Positions 5,792 to 14,094 of a DNA stretch of 64,000 nt are shown piece after piece; within the stretch, counting starts at the first letter, position 1; every line of letters starts with the position of its first letter. A program made the translations under genes and the position numbers. The stretch is from Ruditapes philippinarum (taxonomy: Eukaryota). The stretch lies in assembly GCF_026571515.1 (NCBI RefSeq), contig NW_026864499.1:1-64000 (forward strand), read 5' to 3'. Under the pieces are notes generated by a model. It had not been told where the DNA came from. It worked only from the letters and a program-made list of their open reading frames with translations, and made no database searches.

Positions 5792-6354
5792 AGTTGTTTT
5801 GACAAAAAGAATCATAATAACAATTTAAATGAAGTTGTACGAAAGTTAAATTTTGTATTTGACATGCAATTAAGTTATAAAAGCCTTGCTTTGGTGAATG
5901 GTAGTTATAGAATGCAAAATGGACTTTAACCTACAAATGGACATTTGTTTTAAGCGTATAAATTAATATAACTGTTATAATGAACAAGTGATATATGACA
6001 TAAAATTACCATTAAAACAGTTTGGCATACTTTTTTCATTACTGATACTTGTATATACATTTGAAAATAATGCCCATTCAGTAAGTGAAATCTCCTTTTT
6101 ATGGCCAGAAACTTCGTTTAGTAAAAGCTAGATTATAAAAAGAATTATGACTATAAATAGGAAAATACTATAAATAGATAAAAGTGAATGAAATCGCTGT
6201 TAGACATGGGCAACATGCAGATAATTTTTAAATGATGTTGCTTTAAGAATAAACAAAAATATATCAAAGCAAAATCATATTTTTGGGACTTGATCAGTCA
6301 GTGTTGATGTCTCGGACAAGCCTAATTGAAATGATTAATACTGACAGAAGCGAA

Positions 6355-7625: not shown

Positions 7626-8459
7626 GTTTTGACGGGGAGATAAATGTATATTTTTTTCCTTTCAAAACAGAACAAAATTTCTCGCTGTTAATGATTTGAT
7701 TTAAATATATTGGGTTTCATCAATTATATATAATTAAAGTCACCTATTGTCAGATTACCGACCAATTCCGACGTCGATACGACGTCAAAATGAAACGTTT
7801 GTTAGACGTCGGGGTTTCAACGTTGGTTCAACGTTATATGAAGGTCGCCGACGTCGCGACCAAATTTCAATTATGGTTGTTTCGTCGAACTACTGGCGAA
7901 CTTAATTTATGAAGAGGTGCGAAAGTGGTTTCGTCGATCTTATTTTATATATACGAGTAGTAATTAAAGGCAAAGTAGGCATGGTTCATGTATATAAAGT
8001 GGTTTTATCATCAATATGTTTGTTGTGATCAAATTATGAAGCAAAATTTCATTAATGAATATAATATATTGTAGAAGTATGTCTGTATTTAATACCTATT
8101 TTGATAATGATTTGTTCGTTATTTGATTAATTAGTTTTGAGATATTTTTTTAAAGTTATATTTGTGTCTTTTTCAACGCCTTGGACATGTGTGAAGATGA
8201 TGAGATGACTACGTCCCAAGTTCTGAGATTATGTAGCCACATTTCAGGAATAGGATCAAAGAATTTCAATGACAGGATTTATAAGTACGATTATACTAAA
8301 GAAAATAATATATACATTGTAACAGATTTAAATTTTCAATATCTTATCTTTAATTGCATGAAAATGTGTGATAAACAACAGATTAAGACCCGCGATAATT
8401 GACGAGCCCATTACAATGTATAACCTGTCAAAAATCTTCATAACTAATAATACAAAGGT

Positions 8460-9296
8460 ATGACGACCAGATTAAATTCCATGGACTTAAAGATCAATGA
8501 AATAGACTCAAGTCAAAAGTTTATCAGTTGTCAATATGATGATATTTTGAAGTCAACAGTCTCAAATAAGTCAGTAATCGACACTTTACAGTCAGAGGTT
8601 CGAGCTTTAAGCATGGAAAATGCATCATTACGGACTGAAAGGGAGGTAATAAAAGAGGATGTTCTGGACCTAAAATGCCGTTCAATGCGCGATAATATGA
8701 TGTTTTACGGGATTTCAGAAGGTTCGTCTCTAGGTATTCAGTCCCAACCTACACAAAATGACAACGCAAGCACTTCCGGTGAGGGTCAACATCACTCAGA
8801 TGATATTCGGTCTATTAGTGAAACTTTGCATGATGTTCACGGAGTTTTATATTCCGATGTATGCAACAGTGAGCCGAATTTTGCGAATGATATTTGTGAG
8901 GAAAAAGTGCATTATTTTTGCGCAAACTTATTGAAAATTCCAGATGTGAAAAATAAAGTGCTGATTGATCGTGCGCATAGAATCGGCAAACCAACATCCG
9001 GTAAATGTAGGCCAATTGTGGTTAAGTTCAAGGATACAGCATCAAAATTAGAGGTAAAAAATGCATTAAAATCTGTGAATCTTAAAGGTACAAAATTCAA
9101 TGTAGGTGAGCAATACCCACAAGAAATTCAACAAAGAAGGCGTGACTTAATACCAAAAATGATTGAAGCCAGAAACCAAAATAAAAAAGCAGTTCTTGTT
9201 CGTGATAAACTTTTCATTGACAATAAACTGTATGTGTCACCGCAAAATGGGTACCATGATATGTTCTCTTCTACCACCAAAAATGCTCATAGTTAG
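8460..9296 (+). CDS. LINE ORF1 (coiled coil + RRM/CTD, Transposase_22-like)
   Basis: Heptad region, then LKCRSMRDNMMFYGI, IDRAHRIGK, RPIVVKF, EQYP.EI..RR..L, DKLFID. The true N-terminus may lie upstream and be disrupted. Confidence 0.85.
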   Translation: MTTRLNSMDLKINEIDSSQKFISCQYDDILKSTVSNKSVIDTLQSEVRALSMENASLRTEREVIKEDVLDLKCRSMRDNMMFYGISEGSSLGIQSQPTQNDNASTSGEGQHHSDDIRSISETLHDVHGVLYSDVCNSEPNFANDICEEKVHYFCANLLKIPDVKNKVLIDRAHRIGKPTSGKCRPIVVKFKDTASKLEVKNALKSVNLKGTKFNVGEQYPQEIQQRRRDLIPKMIEARNQNKKAVLVRDKLFIDNKLYVSPQNGYHDMFSSTTKNAHS

Positions 9297-12200
9297 GGAA
9301 TATTTGAAAAGTATGAGCTTAGTTTCCTATCTTGGAATATCGAAGGTTTAACTTGTTTAGATGATGATGAATTTTTGAACTTTATTTATGAATTTGACTT
9401 TATTTTCCTTAGTGAAACGTGGCAGCACAAACCCGAGGGTTTTGACCTTGAAGGTTACCAATCTATATTTGTTCCCAGACCGGCCTCTTTATATGGAACT
9501 AGTAAGAGAGGTCACGGCGGAGTATGCTTGTATTTTAATATCTCTTTGAAAGATGGAGTTCAAATAATGGATATTGACAATAATGGTGTGATTTGGATAA
9601 AATTACTCAAAACGTATTTTGGAAATGATGATGACATTTATCTTTGTTTTATGTACATTCCTCCCCGTAGTTCTGTATATTTCAATTTACATGACATAGG
9701 TTTTTTTGAGATTTTAGAAACGAATGTACGTAAATATTCAAATATGGGCTCGGTGGGAATACTAGGAGATTTGAACTCTAGATGCGGGGTAAAAAGTGAC
9801 ATTTTAGAATCCCCAAACATTTATGAACGTTATTTGAATACTATTGATAATGATATACAATGTACCTAGTTTAGACTTGGATTTATTACCCGTTAGAAGC
9901 TCACTAGACAAAATAGTTAATTCATCGGGGATTAAGCTTTTAGATATATTGATGTGTTCTGATCTTAAGATTGTTAACGGTAGAATTGGTCAAGATTACG
10001 GAGTTGGTAATTTTACCTATATGTCAAGTACCGGTAATAGTGTTATTGATTATGCAATAATGTCGTATCGGTTATTCCCGATTATAAGTAATTTTGTCGT
10101 TCACGACATGTTTTCGTTTTCGGCACATGCTCCGATTCATATTGATTTAAAATGTTTTTGTTTAAAAAATGAAAATATAAATGAGCCTGTCATTGTCAAG
10201 AATATAAAATGGGAAAATGACCGAAACGACATATTTAGAGAATGTATTTCTTCTGATTTATCAAGCATTGAAACTATTGTTAAAGATGTAATTGATAATA
10301 ATTTAAGCTTAGATAGCGGTATTGACTCTATATCTGCTATTTTATACAAAAATTCATATGATATTTTCGGAGTTACGAAAGTCGTTAAAACTTTTAAGTA
10401 CAGACGGAAATTTAAAAGTCAATGGTATGACCAAAATTGTGAGCGTGAAAGAAAGAAGTTTGTTCATGCAAATAGATTGTATTCAAATTATAGATCTGCA
10501 CTTAATAGAGAAAATTTGATTAATAATAGACGATTGTATAGATTAGCTAAGAGGAGAGCAAAGACAAAATATCATTTAGCTCAAAAGAATAAAATGCATA
10601 ACTTATCAAAAACTTCTCCGAAATTGTTTTGGAAGGAAATAAAAAAGTTTAGAAAGAAAAGTCCCGATTGTAAAGTGTCGAGTGAAACGTTTTTTAACCA
10701 TTTTAAGAATTTATTTAATAGCCAAAATGTATTTTCAAATGATGATGTTGAACAGTGTATTAATAGTGATGATGTTATATTACAACATGTTGATATGGTA
10801 GATGAAGAAATTACAATAGAGGAGGTATCTAAGGCTATTTCTTCGCTAAATAGGAATAAAAGTGGTGGTTATGACTTACTTTTACCAGAAATATTTATTG
10901 AATGTAATGATTTATTATCTCCAATTTTAAGTAAAATTTTTAATCATATTTTCACAAGTGGATCTTATCCAACCTCATGGAATAAAGCAATTATTGTACC
11001 TGTCCCGAAAAAAGGGGATCCCGGTGAAGTAAATAATTATAGGGGTATTGCGCTTACAAGTATTTTTTCAAAAATATTCTCAGTAATCCTAGATAATAGA
11101 CTTCGAAAATGGTCAGAGGTCAATAATTTCTTAACAGATAATCAGTATGGATTTAGGAATAGTAGAAGTACTATTGACTGCATATTTGTACTAAATTCTA
11201 TTATTGATAAGATTATTAAACATGATAAAAAGAAATTGTATACTGCATTTGTAGATTTCCGCAAGGCATTTGATTTAACATATAGAAATGGTATTTGGTT
11301 CAAATTAATTGACACTGGTGTCTCAGGTAAAATGTTAAAAATTCTTAAAAGCATGTATGAGGGTGTGAAATTATGTGTACGTAATAATGGCTCACTAACT
11401 GACTTTTTTGATAGTTACATGGGCTTGAAGCAAGGGGAGCCATTATCTCCCTTTTTGTTTATTATGTTTATTAATGATATGCAAGATCATTTAGCTGACG
11501 ATAGTATAGATGTTTTTACCATTGAGGAATTACAAATTTATTTGTTGTTGTTCGCAGATGATACTGCTTTATTTTCTTACTCTGAACAAGGTTTACAAAT
11601 TCTACTTAATAAATTGTATAATTATTGTAGGAAATGGGGTATTGAAGTTAATGCAGATAAAACAGTTGTAATGGTTTTTAGACAAGGTAATAGACCTTCA
11701 AATATATCGCTTAAGTATGACAATAAAATTTTAAAACAAGTTAAAACATTTACTTATTTAGGAGTAACGCTATCATCTAATGGAAGTTTTTATCAAGCTC
11801 AAAAATCATTGTCTGCCCAAGCTTTAAAGGCTCTTTATTCTTTGAACTCCCTTTTTGATAATGTTAATTTAGATATTGAAGATAAATTAAAACTCTTTAA
11901 TTCAATGGTATTACCAATTTTATGTTATGGATCTGAAATATGGGGTTTCTATAAATCTCCTGACATAGAACGTGTATACTTAAAGTTTCTAAAACAAATA
12001 CTTGGTGTTAAACTACAAACATGCAGTACTGCAGTTTATGGTGAATTTGGTGTATTTCCTTTATATATAGTACGTAAAATTAGAATAATCAAGTTTTGGT
12101 ATAAGATTAAAAATATGCCTGACTCAACTATGTATAAATTAATGATGTTGCAAGGACGAAATAATACATTGTTAAATAGTTGGTCATGTAATGTAAAAAA

Positions 12201-12729
12201 GTTATTAGATGACCTTGGTTTTTCTTACCTGTGGAATTGTGATAGAATATCTGAAATGAATGTTAAATTAATTATTCAAAGAATCCACGATCAATATTTA
12301 CAACAATGGTTATCTGAATTAGACTCATCTTCTAAATTAGATTATTATAGAGAATTTAAGTTAAATTTTATTCAAGCTAGTTATTTAAATACTGTTAATG
12401 TCGAAGCACATATGAAAGCACTAGCGAGATTTAGATGTTCATCACACAACTTAGAGATTGAAGAAGGTCGATATAGGAATATTATTAGAAGCGAAAGATT
12501 ATGTAGAAGATGTAATATGAATCAAGTTGAATCAGAGTATCATTTTTTGTTAATATGTCCTTTTTATAGAGAATTACGATTAACTCTTTTAGATAATTAT
12601 TATTACACATGGCCTAATATGAATAAATTCAATAAGCTTATGTCAACAGCCAAAAGATCTGTTATAATAAAACTTGCAAAATTTGTCTATCTGGCTTTTA
12701 AGAAGAGAAACGAGAGTGTTGTTGTATAA
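9297..12729 (+). CDS. LINE ORF2: APE endonuclease + reverse transcriptase, one frameshift at ~9850-9865
   Basis: APE motifs SWNIEG, LSETW, GGV, YIPP, GDLNSR, SVIDY, SAH. RT motifs NYRGIAL, QYGFR, FVDFRKAFD, GLKQGEPLSP, LFADD, YLG. C-terminal C..C....VESEYHFLLICP. Confidence 0.92.
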
Positions 12730-14094
12730 TAAGATATGTATTTCTTTAAACTATTTTTCATATTTATGCTGTATATTATTAGATATGTTAAATATGACAT
12801 GTGTTGTATTGTATGTGTTTATGTGTACTTAAAACTGCCCATCTTTAGTAAAAACATGAAAATGAAACATGAATTATATATTTTCATACTTTTCAATATT
12901 ATATTACTTTTGTTAATATAACCGCCAATTATGTGTGGCGAAAAACATGTATAAATGTTTATGCTAATAAATACTTTGACTTTTGGTATAGACGGGTCCA
13001 TATATTTGGTTCTGTCTAAAATAATATATTAACACACATTTTTTTAAAGACTCCTGGATCATTTGAAGGGGAAATTTTACACTTTAGTTCTGTATTTGCA
13101 AATAATTTTGCATACTGTTTCATACCGTGCTTGTCGAAACCGTTTTGTTTAAGGTGTAAAAGAAAATGCAAATTACTCTCATTCTTTTAAGCGCTTTTAA
13201 TAACTTGACAAACTATCTATTTTTCATGTTAAGATGAATCATGTGGGAAACTAGCTCTGGCAAATTGTTCTTGGACCCTTTATTTGTTGTGTGTATTTTC
13301 AGTGATTCACTGCTGAAGGCATTACAAGTGTGTTTTCTTGGTAAAGCTATCTGTATAAAAGGCGGAATATCTGTCATTAGAAATATTTCAAACCCATATG
13401 TACAGGACAATGTTTCCTCTAAATGTGTTCCATTTTTCAAGATCATCGCGGGAGAAAAAAGAAATTTTAAATTTAAAATGAATTAAAATATTGTTCAAAA
13501 ACCATTGTGTGAACGTGTGTTTTAATGTAAACTTATGAATTATTTATGCATACGTTTGCATATTTTTATGTATGTGTAAATGTTAATGTTTTACAAATCA
13601 ATGAATGTTATTTTATGCGATATTAAAATATACAAAGGGAAATAATGATAATAATCTCTGCATAATTTAACATAATAATCAGAGTTGTCTTTCTTTGATA
13701 AGATATACTGACAAGTGTAGTTATGTTAGACTGAATACTATTTATGTTTTTAATCTGTAAAAGTTATATATATATACTCGAATTCATAGAGAGAAATCAA
13801 AGTAATGATAGTTTGTAGTATCAAGAAAATATGGCACAAACTCAATTATGGCTTCAAGATTCTAAGAGATGACACCTGCCCTGTGCCAACCTGCGAAGTT
13901 TTCTTCTATAGATATCCAAAGTTCAACAACGAACTGTACAGAATCAATGCGGTCGCATAACCTACATGAAGTACGACGCGAAACGCCATACTTTCATTTT
14001 CTGGTCATCTTCAACATTTCGACGAATATAGGTTTTTTTTTTTAAATTAATACTACAATCCTGTGGCAGAATTAAAACATATGGCGGCAAATTC

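Follow-up and report, generated by a model that had tools for sequence, protein, structure and literature searches.

An in-frame UAG between ORF1 and ORF2 of a LINE from Ruditapes philippinarum and a predicted RNA helix linking it to the 3' end of the element

The element and its ORF1–ORF2 junction

The window, i.e. the whole stretch of 64,000 nucleotides analysed (positions 1 to 64,000 of the forward strand of contig NW_026864499.1, assembly GCF_026571515.1, Ruditapes philippinarum), contains a copy of a retrotransposon of the APE type that lacks long terminal repeats (non-LTR), a long interspersed nuclear element (LINE) whose two open reading frames (ORFs) lie in one frame on either side of a single TAG. 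An earlier annotation made from the DNA letters (the sequence-only reading) had singled out this junction as a candidate site of programmed stop-codon readthrough. The junction was confirmed and belongs to the family rather than to the window copy alone. The window copy is itself dead, being both 5'-truncated and frameshifted: homology with its sister copies begins at ~8461, and the frameshift near 9856 consists of 7 extra bases that are missing from the reads and from the sister copies. In sister copy L144, ORF2 is open over 1140 codons. The features of the copy are as follows.

8461..12982, + strand: 5'-truncated, inactive APE-type non-LTR retrotransposon copy (family 1 among the 33 sampled; 94-98% identical to sister copies)
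8451..9296, + strand: ORF1 remnant with coiled coil, RNA recognition motif (RRM) and C-terminal domain (CTD), N-terminal part missing; frame open over 8451-9293
9283..9285, + strand: ATG that is out of frame here and in sister copies, not the ORF2 start
9294..9298, + strand: candidate readthrough site, the in-frame ORF1 stop TAG with G(A/G) after it (all 32 family representatives, 97 of 105 copies)
9297..9303, + strand: 7-nt spacer between the stop and the predicted helix
9304..9317, + strand: 5' arm of the predicted long-range RNA helix, rich in purines, with constant spacing from the stop
9297..12729, + strand: ORF2 with APE endonuclease, reverse transcriptase (RT) and C-terminal Cys/His knuckle; no start codon before codon 91, frameshift at ~9856
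11002..11772, + strand: RT domain (Pfam RVT_1, E 2e-36)
12502..12558, + strand: C-x2-C...H...C motif read from the translation, which we take to be zinc-knuckle-like
12883..12896, + strand: 3' arm of the predicted helix in the 3' untranslated region, 14 bp with 9304-9317
12922..12941, + strand: conserved 3'-terminal stem-loop, presumably recognized by the RT as in stringent LINEs; similar hairpins follow the 3' arm in many families
12966..12980, + strand: AATAAA and the first unit of a (TTGAC)n tail, of which the window copy has one unit

As had been read from the letters, ORF1 continues in frame across the TAG at 9294-9296 into the codons GGA ATA TTT GAA AAG and onwards (GIFEKYELSFLSWNIEG), and a Pfam Exo_endo_phos match begins at residue 11 of the post-stop frame (E 3e-6). 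The first in-frame ATG was correctly placed inside the endonuclease; it is codon 91 (9567), 3' of the SETW motif. The ATG at 9283 had been offered as a possible real start of ORF2. It is present, but it is out of frame in the sister copies also, and an ATG at this offset occurs in only 6 of 32 families, every one out of frame.

The own-genome sample was drawn from the 1.4-Gb assembly by one DNA search and two protein searches, in each of which 150 of ~1,450 candidates were scored, with 60 further stretches picked from the endonuclease match list to span the scores. The 138 loci found with an endonuclease start formed 34 clusters at 82% identity. Two clusters were set aside as decayed old copies of family 1, leaving 32 families, and L163 represents a 33rd. 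Each family is represented by its least decayed TAG-G copy; the copy-level tally is unselected.

In all 32 representatives, a TAG followed by G and then by A or G lies in frame with both ORFs, and the WN motif comes 10-13 codons later; L163 likewise carries TAG-G(A/G). The UAG-G context is therefore found in 32 of 32 families, and a single in-frame stop between the two ORFs without a downstream start is found in the same 32 as well as in the intact elements. An in-frame ATG between the stop and the WN motif was present in none of the 32 families scanned. These families are diverse, with endonuclease N-termini down to ~33% identity with that of the window, and ORF2 synonymous sites are saturated (observed/expected 1.03). 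At copy level, 114 distinct junction sequences were obtained, 9 without the ORF1 side and 105 with it, and 97 of these 105 read TAGGA or TAGGG. The other eight are single decayed variants (2 TAA, 1 AAG, 1 with TAG deleted and 4 others); TGG was seen at the junction in 0 of 105. A 5'-truncated family 18 copy, L093, lacks exactly the TAG triplet. Both ORFs are open in L147, L150, L151 and L152, with ORF1 of ~385-420 amino acids from its ATG and ORF2 of 1139-1144 codons. The stop of ORF2 itself varies among TAA, TAG and TGA, and the first in-frame Met of ORF2 ranges from codon 66 to codon 221 (20 elements).

Three findings had been named beforehand as counting against readthrough, namely ATG 9283 in frame with ORF2, a sense codon in place of the TAG, or a variable junction frame among families. 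The ATG is out of frame as described above, a sense codon was seen in no family, and the frame is constant among the own-genome families. With the TAG and the following bases conserved across copies and families, the sequence comparison thus supports the proposed readthrough. A search for longer proteins that could be natural sense-codon fusions of ORF1 and ORF2 gave 3 matches. One, P0001 from Mytilus edulis, has ORF1 fused to the middle of the endonuclease; it resembles a splice made by gene prediction and was not taken as evidence.

Features downstream of the stop are anchored to it (the T of TAG is +1). Positions +13 to +19 read G-A-R-R-A-G-Y in most families, and this purine motif keeps that place as the spacing to the WN motif varies between 10 and 13 codons. 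The third base of codon 5 (+18) is G in 26 of 30 families against 7.0 expected, and among 143 comparable ORF2 columns none has a higher value than that of this wobble G (13/14, against a mean of 0.25 and a next value of 0.625). Elsewhere in ORF2, a synonymous-site scan in 9-codon windows gave no convincing internal element, and its top windows rest on few pairs. Local folding gave no comparable signal: the mean z was ~0 in all 14 windows from -150 to +300 over 32 families, which speaks against a local hairpin or pseudoknot after the stop within the reach of a folding program that does not model pseudoknots. The suggested pairing of UAGGGAA with 9323-9329 is not supported, being missing from the minimum free energy fold (z -0.44). 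No pyrimidine tract precedes the stop (mean pyrimidine share 0.47 over -25 to -5).

Pairing between the junction and the 3' end

A whole-element scan for the best partner of the post-stop bases gave matches that cluster at the 3' end. In the window copy, 9304-9317 is predicted to pair with 12883-12896 over 14 bp (-16.3 kcal/mol), and 0 of 60 control probes were as good, the controls for each element being 60 probes from its own ORF2. When junction and 3' end were folded together, the pairing probability of this helix was ~1.0. Across the elements the helix has 8-14 bp, begins 7-9 nt past the stop and has its partner strand 3.1-4.3 kb away at the 3' end, usually near the terminal stem-loop and AATAAA. 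The 3' end was available for 31 of 33 families, and the junction probe was better than all 60 controls in 21 of the 31, a count that is somewhat optimistic because, for multi-copy families, a copy with an intact-looking 3' end was chosen after the first helix results. Families 6, 8, 14 and 27 had only 1-2 of 60 controls as good (in family 6 the best match lies beyond the element and a shorter helix at the expected site), and family 25 had 11 bp at the homologous site with 4 of 60 controls as good. The 3' arms of families 24 and 33 (L264 and L155) lie ~270-305 nt before the ORF2 stop; these families appear to have moved the arm into the coding sequence of ORF2, and their arms differ from each other by a two-sided change.

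Similar pairing was found among 12 elements from other collections (described below). L170, L191, L199 and L214 were better than all 60 controls, L166, L195 and L245 had 1-3 controls as good, and L167 had 8 (8 bp at +13). The strongest cases, L191, L199, L195, L214, L166 and family 34, have unrelated arm sequences. In two relatives whose ORF2 begins with an ATG the helix was absent, with 59 of 60 controls as good in L180 and 58 of 60 in L178.

The specificity of the pairing was assessed by exchanging partners. Over 42 elements, cognate pairs had a mean of -16.4 kcal/mol vs -11.6 for permuted partners and 0 of 20,000 permutations reached the cognate value, although the families are related by descent, so that the binomial and permutation values overstate independence and the p-values are upper bounds on confidence. 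The own families alone gave -16.0 for cognate and -11.8 kcal/mol for swapped pairs. When the probe was slid along the element, the excess appeared only at starts from +8 to +17, with a peak at +11, in both the own and the external sets, and none was seen upstream of the stop. Among the 33 elements with ungapped helices, every base between +13 and +19 is paired in 32-33, and 3-4 Watson-Crick pair types occur at every position between +11 and +23; in 29 of 33 the first helix base falls at +11 to +13 (a spacer of 7-9 nt). Families 22, 29 and 30 were left out of this set (33 of 36), their helices carrying a bulge for which the ungapped register chose other sites. Two-sided compensatory changes separate the close pairs f10/f18, f7/f14, f25/f31, L191/L199 and L195/L214. 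Counts of G-U against A-C pairs were set aside because the scoring skews them. Co-folding of junction and 3' end gave a helix probability near 1 in 10 of 13 elements; L150 had a weak helix and L155 a partial one, and L147 had none. By these comparisons, a covarying helix at a fixed spacer of 7-9 nt with its partner at the 3' end is shown at the level of predicted pairing, and its proposed function is that of a readthrough stimulator.

In L151, L152, L154, L256, L257, L260, L261, L266 and L268, the 3' arm is formed by the last codons of ORF2, up to the stop, and because of this the ORF2 proteins of the subgroup end alike (AAS, TVS, AAP). TAG-GR is kept without a convincing partner in L147, L275, L276 (family 11), L265 and L163; the 3' region of family 11 is long.

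Relatives in other organisms and clade placement

Metagenome, genome and viral collections yielded 87 loci, most of which lack the junction or are single-ORF RTE-like elements. An in-frame TAG-GR precedes the endonuclease in L164, L166, L170, L195, L202, L209, L214, L245, L246 and L247. Other in-frame stops are TAG-GC in L167, TGA-CGG in L191, TAG-CAA-GCA in L199, TGA-CAG with a long leader in L186 and TGA-CGA in L187, at which the contig begins. The TGA-CGG of L191 fits the Type II readthrough motif and the TAG-CAA-GCA of L199 the yeast UAG-CAR-NBA motif of PMC3159437. An ATG for ORF2 is present in L178, L180, L216, L226 and L234, and in L180 (870-881) it forms an overlapping AUGA stop-start without the helix. 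The wider group seems to use both strategies, stop-start and in-frame stop. By their junctions, L168 and L207 are placed with neither type. A strong helix of L207 begins at +11 and has the last ORF2 codons as its partner (2753-2790 with 6270-6303); the element groups with the ATG-type elements in the tree, and the A-run after its stop could reflect either an indel in the contig or a -1 shift site. A viral scan with the RT alignment gave one weak match, L250, which was not used, and scans of the collections with the endonuclease alignment gave nothing usable.

The elements have the hallmarks of APE-type LINEs. ORF2 contains APE endonuclease and RT (Pfam PF03372 and PF00078; best solved relative L1 ORF2p, E 6e-27), and 5' truncation and a 3' tandem or poly(A) tail are found. 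Searches of ORF1 in Pfam, the PDB sequences and the ESM Atlas gave only coiled-coil or unnamed matches. A structural model of the ORF1 of a relative matches human L1 ORF1p (Foldseek E 3e-6; VIA Z 10.4, root mean square deviation 4.4, 174 aligned), including the L1 ORF1p trimer, RRM and CTD entries. As modelled, ORF1 is folded like human L1 ORF1p, as would be looked for in an RNA-binding ORF1 protein.

In a quick RT tree, built without named clade references, the in-frame types fall in several sub-branches of one group of 68 rows (SH-like approximate likelihood ratio test 91), apart from the rows read as RTE-like. The RT motifs are of RTE type, and together with the C-terminal knuckle they presumably argue against CR1. 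The clade seems more likely to be RTEX (RTE-X) than CR1, an assignment to be read as a lead. RTEX has been reported from gastropods (PMC11203168) and, unlike RTE, has a full ORF1 (PMC3905857). The elements resemble it in having two ORFs and in standing apart in the tree from the single-ORF RTE-like rows, whereas the ORF1 of the clam family differs in having no esterase. No RTEX labels were found in part 1 of 65 of the gastropod supplement.

Proposed readthrough, rival explanations and known systems

Taken together, these sequence comparisons make it probable that the elements use programmed readthrough to produce an ORF1-ORF2 fusion, stimulated by the helix between the end of the element and the junction. 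Translation of the element RNA would start at the ORF1 AUG, and termination of most ribosomes at the UAG would give the L1-like ORF1 protein. The remaining minority would read the UAG by a near-cognate tRNA and yield an ORF1-APE-RT fusion of ~1,550 residues, the helix lying at the mRNA entrance of the ribosome while the stop is in the A site and thereby favouring the near-cognate tRNA. By analogy with tombusviruses, only RNAs with an intact 3' end would yield enzyme, and new enzyme would be made close to the 3' stem-loop that is to be copied, which could provide a quality check and a basis for cis-preference. More speculatively, the elongating ribosome would melt the helix and might thereby switch the RNA from translation to reverse transcription. 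The broader statement, that an old LINE branch in animals and apparently other eukaryotes makes its RT only as a readthrough fusion licensed by its own 3' end, is slightly more likely than not.

Several observations weigh against this proposal. Families 11, 26 and 35 yielded no partner, nor did L186, L168, L247 and L209, and no helix was found in L252, L255, L258, L281 and L284, whose 3' parts are enlarged or rearranged. The partners of families 24 and 33 surfaced only after the search was widened, and that of L164, at +814 just before the terminal hairpin, lay outside the first search range; the selection of copies and the shared descent stated above count on the same side. In six external relatives (L166, L170, L187, L199, L246 and L247), the WN motif is preceded by an in-frame Met whose position differs among them, and in L207 ORF1 ends TAA-G and ORF2 is one base out of frame though the stop-anchored helix is present. 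A purine at +4 normally favours termination, as does a nearby poly(A)-binding protein, and to our knowledge LINEs have no protease to cut a fusion.

An unlikely alternative to readthrough is that ribosomes terminate and reinitiate near the stop without an AUG, a route proposed for L1 and known from caliciviruses, with the helix holding the post-termination ribosome in the manner of the SART1 downstream structure and ORF2 made as a separate protein. The LINEs studied so far do reinitiate, SART1 requires structure downstream of the stop, and non-AUG starts are tolerated in calicivirus (PMC5972666). It would be in keeping with the AAG or AGG that 19 of 32 families have in frame at codon 5, with the early Met codons of the six relatives and with the helix retained by the out-of-frame L207. 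Reinitiation needs neither a single frame nor one particular stop codon nor fixed +4 and +5 bases, yet all of these are invariant in 32 of 32 families. No one near-cognate start recurs in every family, and in families 23 and 25 such a start is lacking altogether ahead of the WN motif. The UGGGA core of the termination upstream ribosomal binding site (TURBS), by which the ribosome could be tethered, lies within 120 nt upstream of the stop in only 2 of 32 families, and relatives switch to other known readthrough contexts. An ORF2 AUG near or overlapping the ORF1 stop, as in L1 and SART1, was found in 0 of 32. About as doubtful is readthrough by local context alone, with the helix bringing the poly(A) end next to the ORF1 stop and so serving escape from nonsense-mediated decay (NMD) in spite of the 3.5 kb that follow, or uniting the RNA ends for ribonucleoprotein assembly or template recognition. 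A poly(A) tail folded near the stop suppresses NMD in human cells (PMC2689704), the 3' arm is usually close to the terminal stem-loop and AATAAA, and a few families keep TAG-GR without a detectable helix. Such roles leave unexplained why the helix of 29 of 33 elements starts at +11 to +13 and why families 24 and 33 have their partners ~300 nt inside ORF2, and the ATG-type relatives would face the same NMD problem without a helix (2 of 2 tested with a known ORF1 stop). These roles could coexist with stimulated readthrough.

Splicing, editing and decay are together very improbable. TAG|G fits the YAG|G consensus of a 3' splice acceptor, through which ORF2 could be made from an RNA spliced to an upstream exon with an AUG, and motifs rich in purines can act as exonic enhancers. 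The absence of a pyrimidine tract, a further AG at most 16 nt upstream in 26 of 32 families, and relatives with TGA-CGG, which cannot be acceptors, largely exclude this reading; 0 of 9 copies without the ORF1 side were seen to start at the G after the TAG, and two contigs from runs guessed to be RNA cross the junction unspliced, though this last point is weak. Just as slim is the chance that ADAR edits UAG to UIG (Trp) in part of the RNAs, as at the amber/W site of hepatitis delta virus. UAG is a preferred triplet of the enzyme and double-stranded RNA would be nearby, but the stop is itself unpaired, the helix beginning 7-9 nt past it; edited RNAs should be copied back, yet TGG is seen in 0 of 105 copies, and relatives with TGA could not use editing. 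Slimmer still is the chance that a single ORF, or an ATG-started ORF2, has been damaged in the window copy. That copy is damaged elsewhere, but this reading is refuted by the occurrence of the same junction in 97 of 105 copies and in every one of the 33 families, among them L147, L150, L151 and L152 with both ORFs open.

Stimulated readthrough can be compared with several known systems. In a tombusvirus the polymerase is produced by readthrough that needs pairing over ~3.5 kb to a 3' replication element (Cimino et al. 2011, PMC3234231), for which the culling of truncated RNAs and cis-preference have been proposed (PMC3234231). The LINE is similar in its kilobase-scale pairing to the 3'-terminal region, here computational, and the span is ~3.5 kb in both. 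The tombusvirus proximal element, however, is a large local stem-loop, of which no counterpart was found 3' of the stop in the LINE, where the long-range helix itself forms the stem at the 7-9 nt spacer; and the predicted pairing here is that of a LINE, whereas the tombusvirus is an RNA virus. In alphavirus, tobravirus, furovirus and murine leukemia virus (MuLV) gag-pol, the stimulator is a stem of ~11-12 bp located 7-9 nt past the stop (Firth et al. 2011, PMC3159437), and a viral stimulator spacer matching that of the LINE helix is also given in PMC13517186. The LINEs share with these viruses the contexts UAG-G, UGA-CGG and UAG-CAR, compensatory changes and the 7-9 nt spacer. A structure 7-9 nt after the stop, the Type III feature, is indicated by computation and covariation in 29 of 33 helix elements. 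The partner lies within ~140 nt or in a compact pseudoknot in those viruses and 3.1-4.3 kb away in the LINE; a compact local pseudoknot of MuLV type was not found, the stem at that position being the long-range one.

Among LINEs, readthrough has been proposed from consensus sequences for the Group 3 non-LTR retrotransposons of Paramecium (Guerin et al. 2017, PMC5405496), in which ORF1 and ORF2 are likewise in frame across a stop. These form a separate ciliate clade in the tree of PMC5405496 and are likened here by description, the passages available giving no stop context or stimulator. Human L1 and silkworm SART1 use an ORF2 AUG, after a 63-nt spacer or in an overlapping stop-start, and reinitiation (PMC5972666). 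They too have a bicistronic RNA, APE and RT and an L1-fold ORF1 protein, and SART1 also needs structure past the stop, but the present elements differ in having no ORF2 AUG and a fixed frame. In the literature searched on LINE readthrough, RTEX and long-range pairing, to the extent of the passages available, no report of this junction or helix in a LINE was found; Repbase Reports and most subscription journals lay outside the search, and the in-frame stop may be annotated in Repbase Reports. Readthrough has already been proposed for one LINE group; new here is the candidate long-range helix, i.e. known recoding parts in a retrotransposon arrangement that is unreported in that literature.

How LINEs translate ORF2 and how their proteins act on their own RNA are long-standing questions that have been answered for few elements. 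If true, the proposed mechanism would bring long-range control of readthrough, so far described in plant RNA viruses, to a retroelement of cellular genomes, would predict a Gag-Pol-like fusion in a LINE, and would provide RNA-level cis-preference and a switch between translation and reverse transcription that are invisible to standard local readthrough reporters. The dual-luciferase test of the junction suggested by the sequence-only reading would probably give a false negative, because the candidate stimulator pairs the junction with the distant 3' end. The mechanism offered by the clade can be tested on its conserved stop, on the fixed spacer and on the two arms of the helix, for which compensatory variants occur naturally. 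Readthrough would also account for the arbitrary internal codons at which gene callers begin these ORF2 proteins, and by its sequence the helix can serve to test whether an element is of the readthrough type and to match 5' ends with 3' ends in repeat libraries.

Some minor observations concern the window and the collections. Around the window copy no target-site duplication of at least 6 bp was found, and an Rfam search of 8300-13200 had 0 matches with E of 1 or less. Just upstream of where the truncated copy begins, 8154-8460 holds an 82-codon open frame and flank with no sister-copy match and no Pfam family. Runs X23 and X24 over window positions 8461-10000 carry an RNA-Seq label, but 58-59% of their reads are chimeric and break at GATC, on both strands; they resemble proximity-ligation DNA and were not used as expression data. 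Runs X1 and X3 were only guessed to be RNA. Among the records listed as carrying the element, none is registered as RNA. Other LINE ORFs directly adjoin copies L011, L153, L155 and L163, which suggests nested or clustered insertions. LINE sequences were also seen in metagenome-assembled genomes of bacteria, Sedimenticola and Ca. Thiodiazotropha by title (L244-L247 and proteins P0002 and P0011), and are probably host DNA in symbiont bins.

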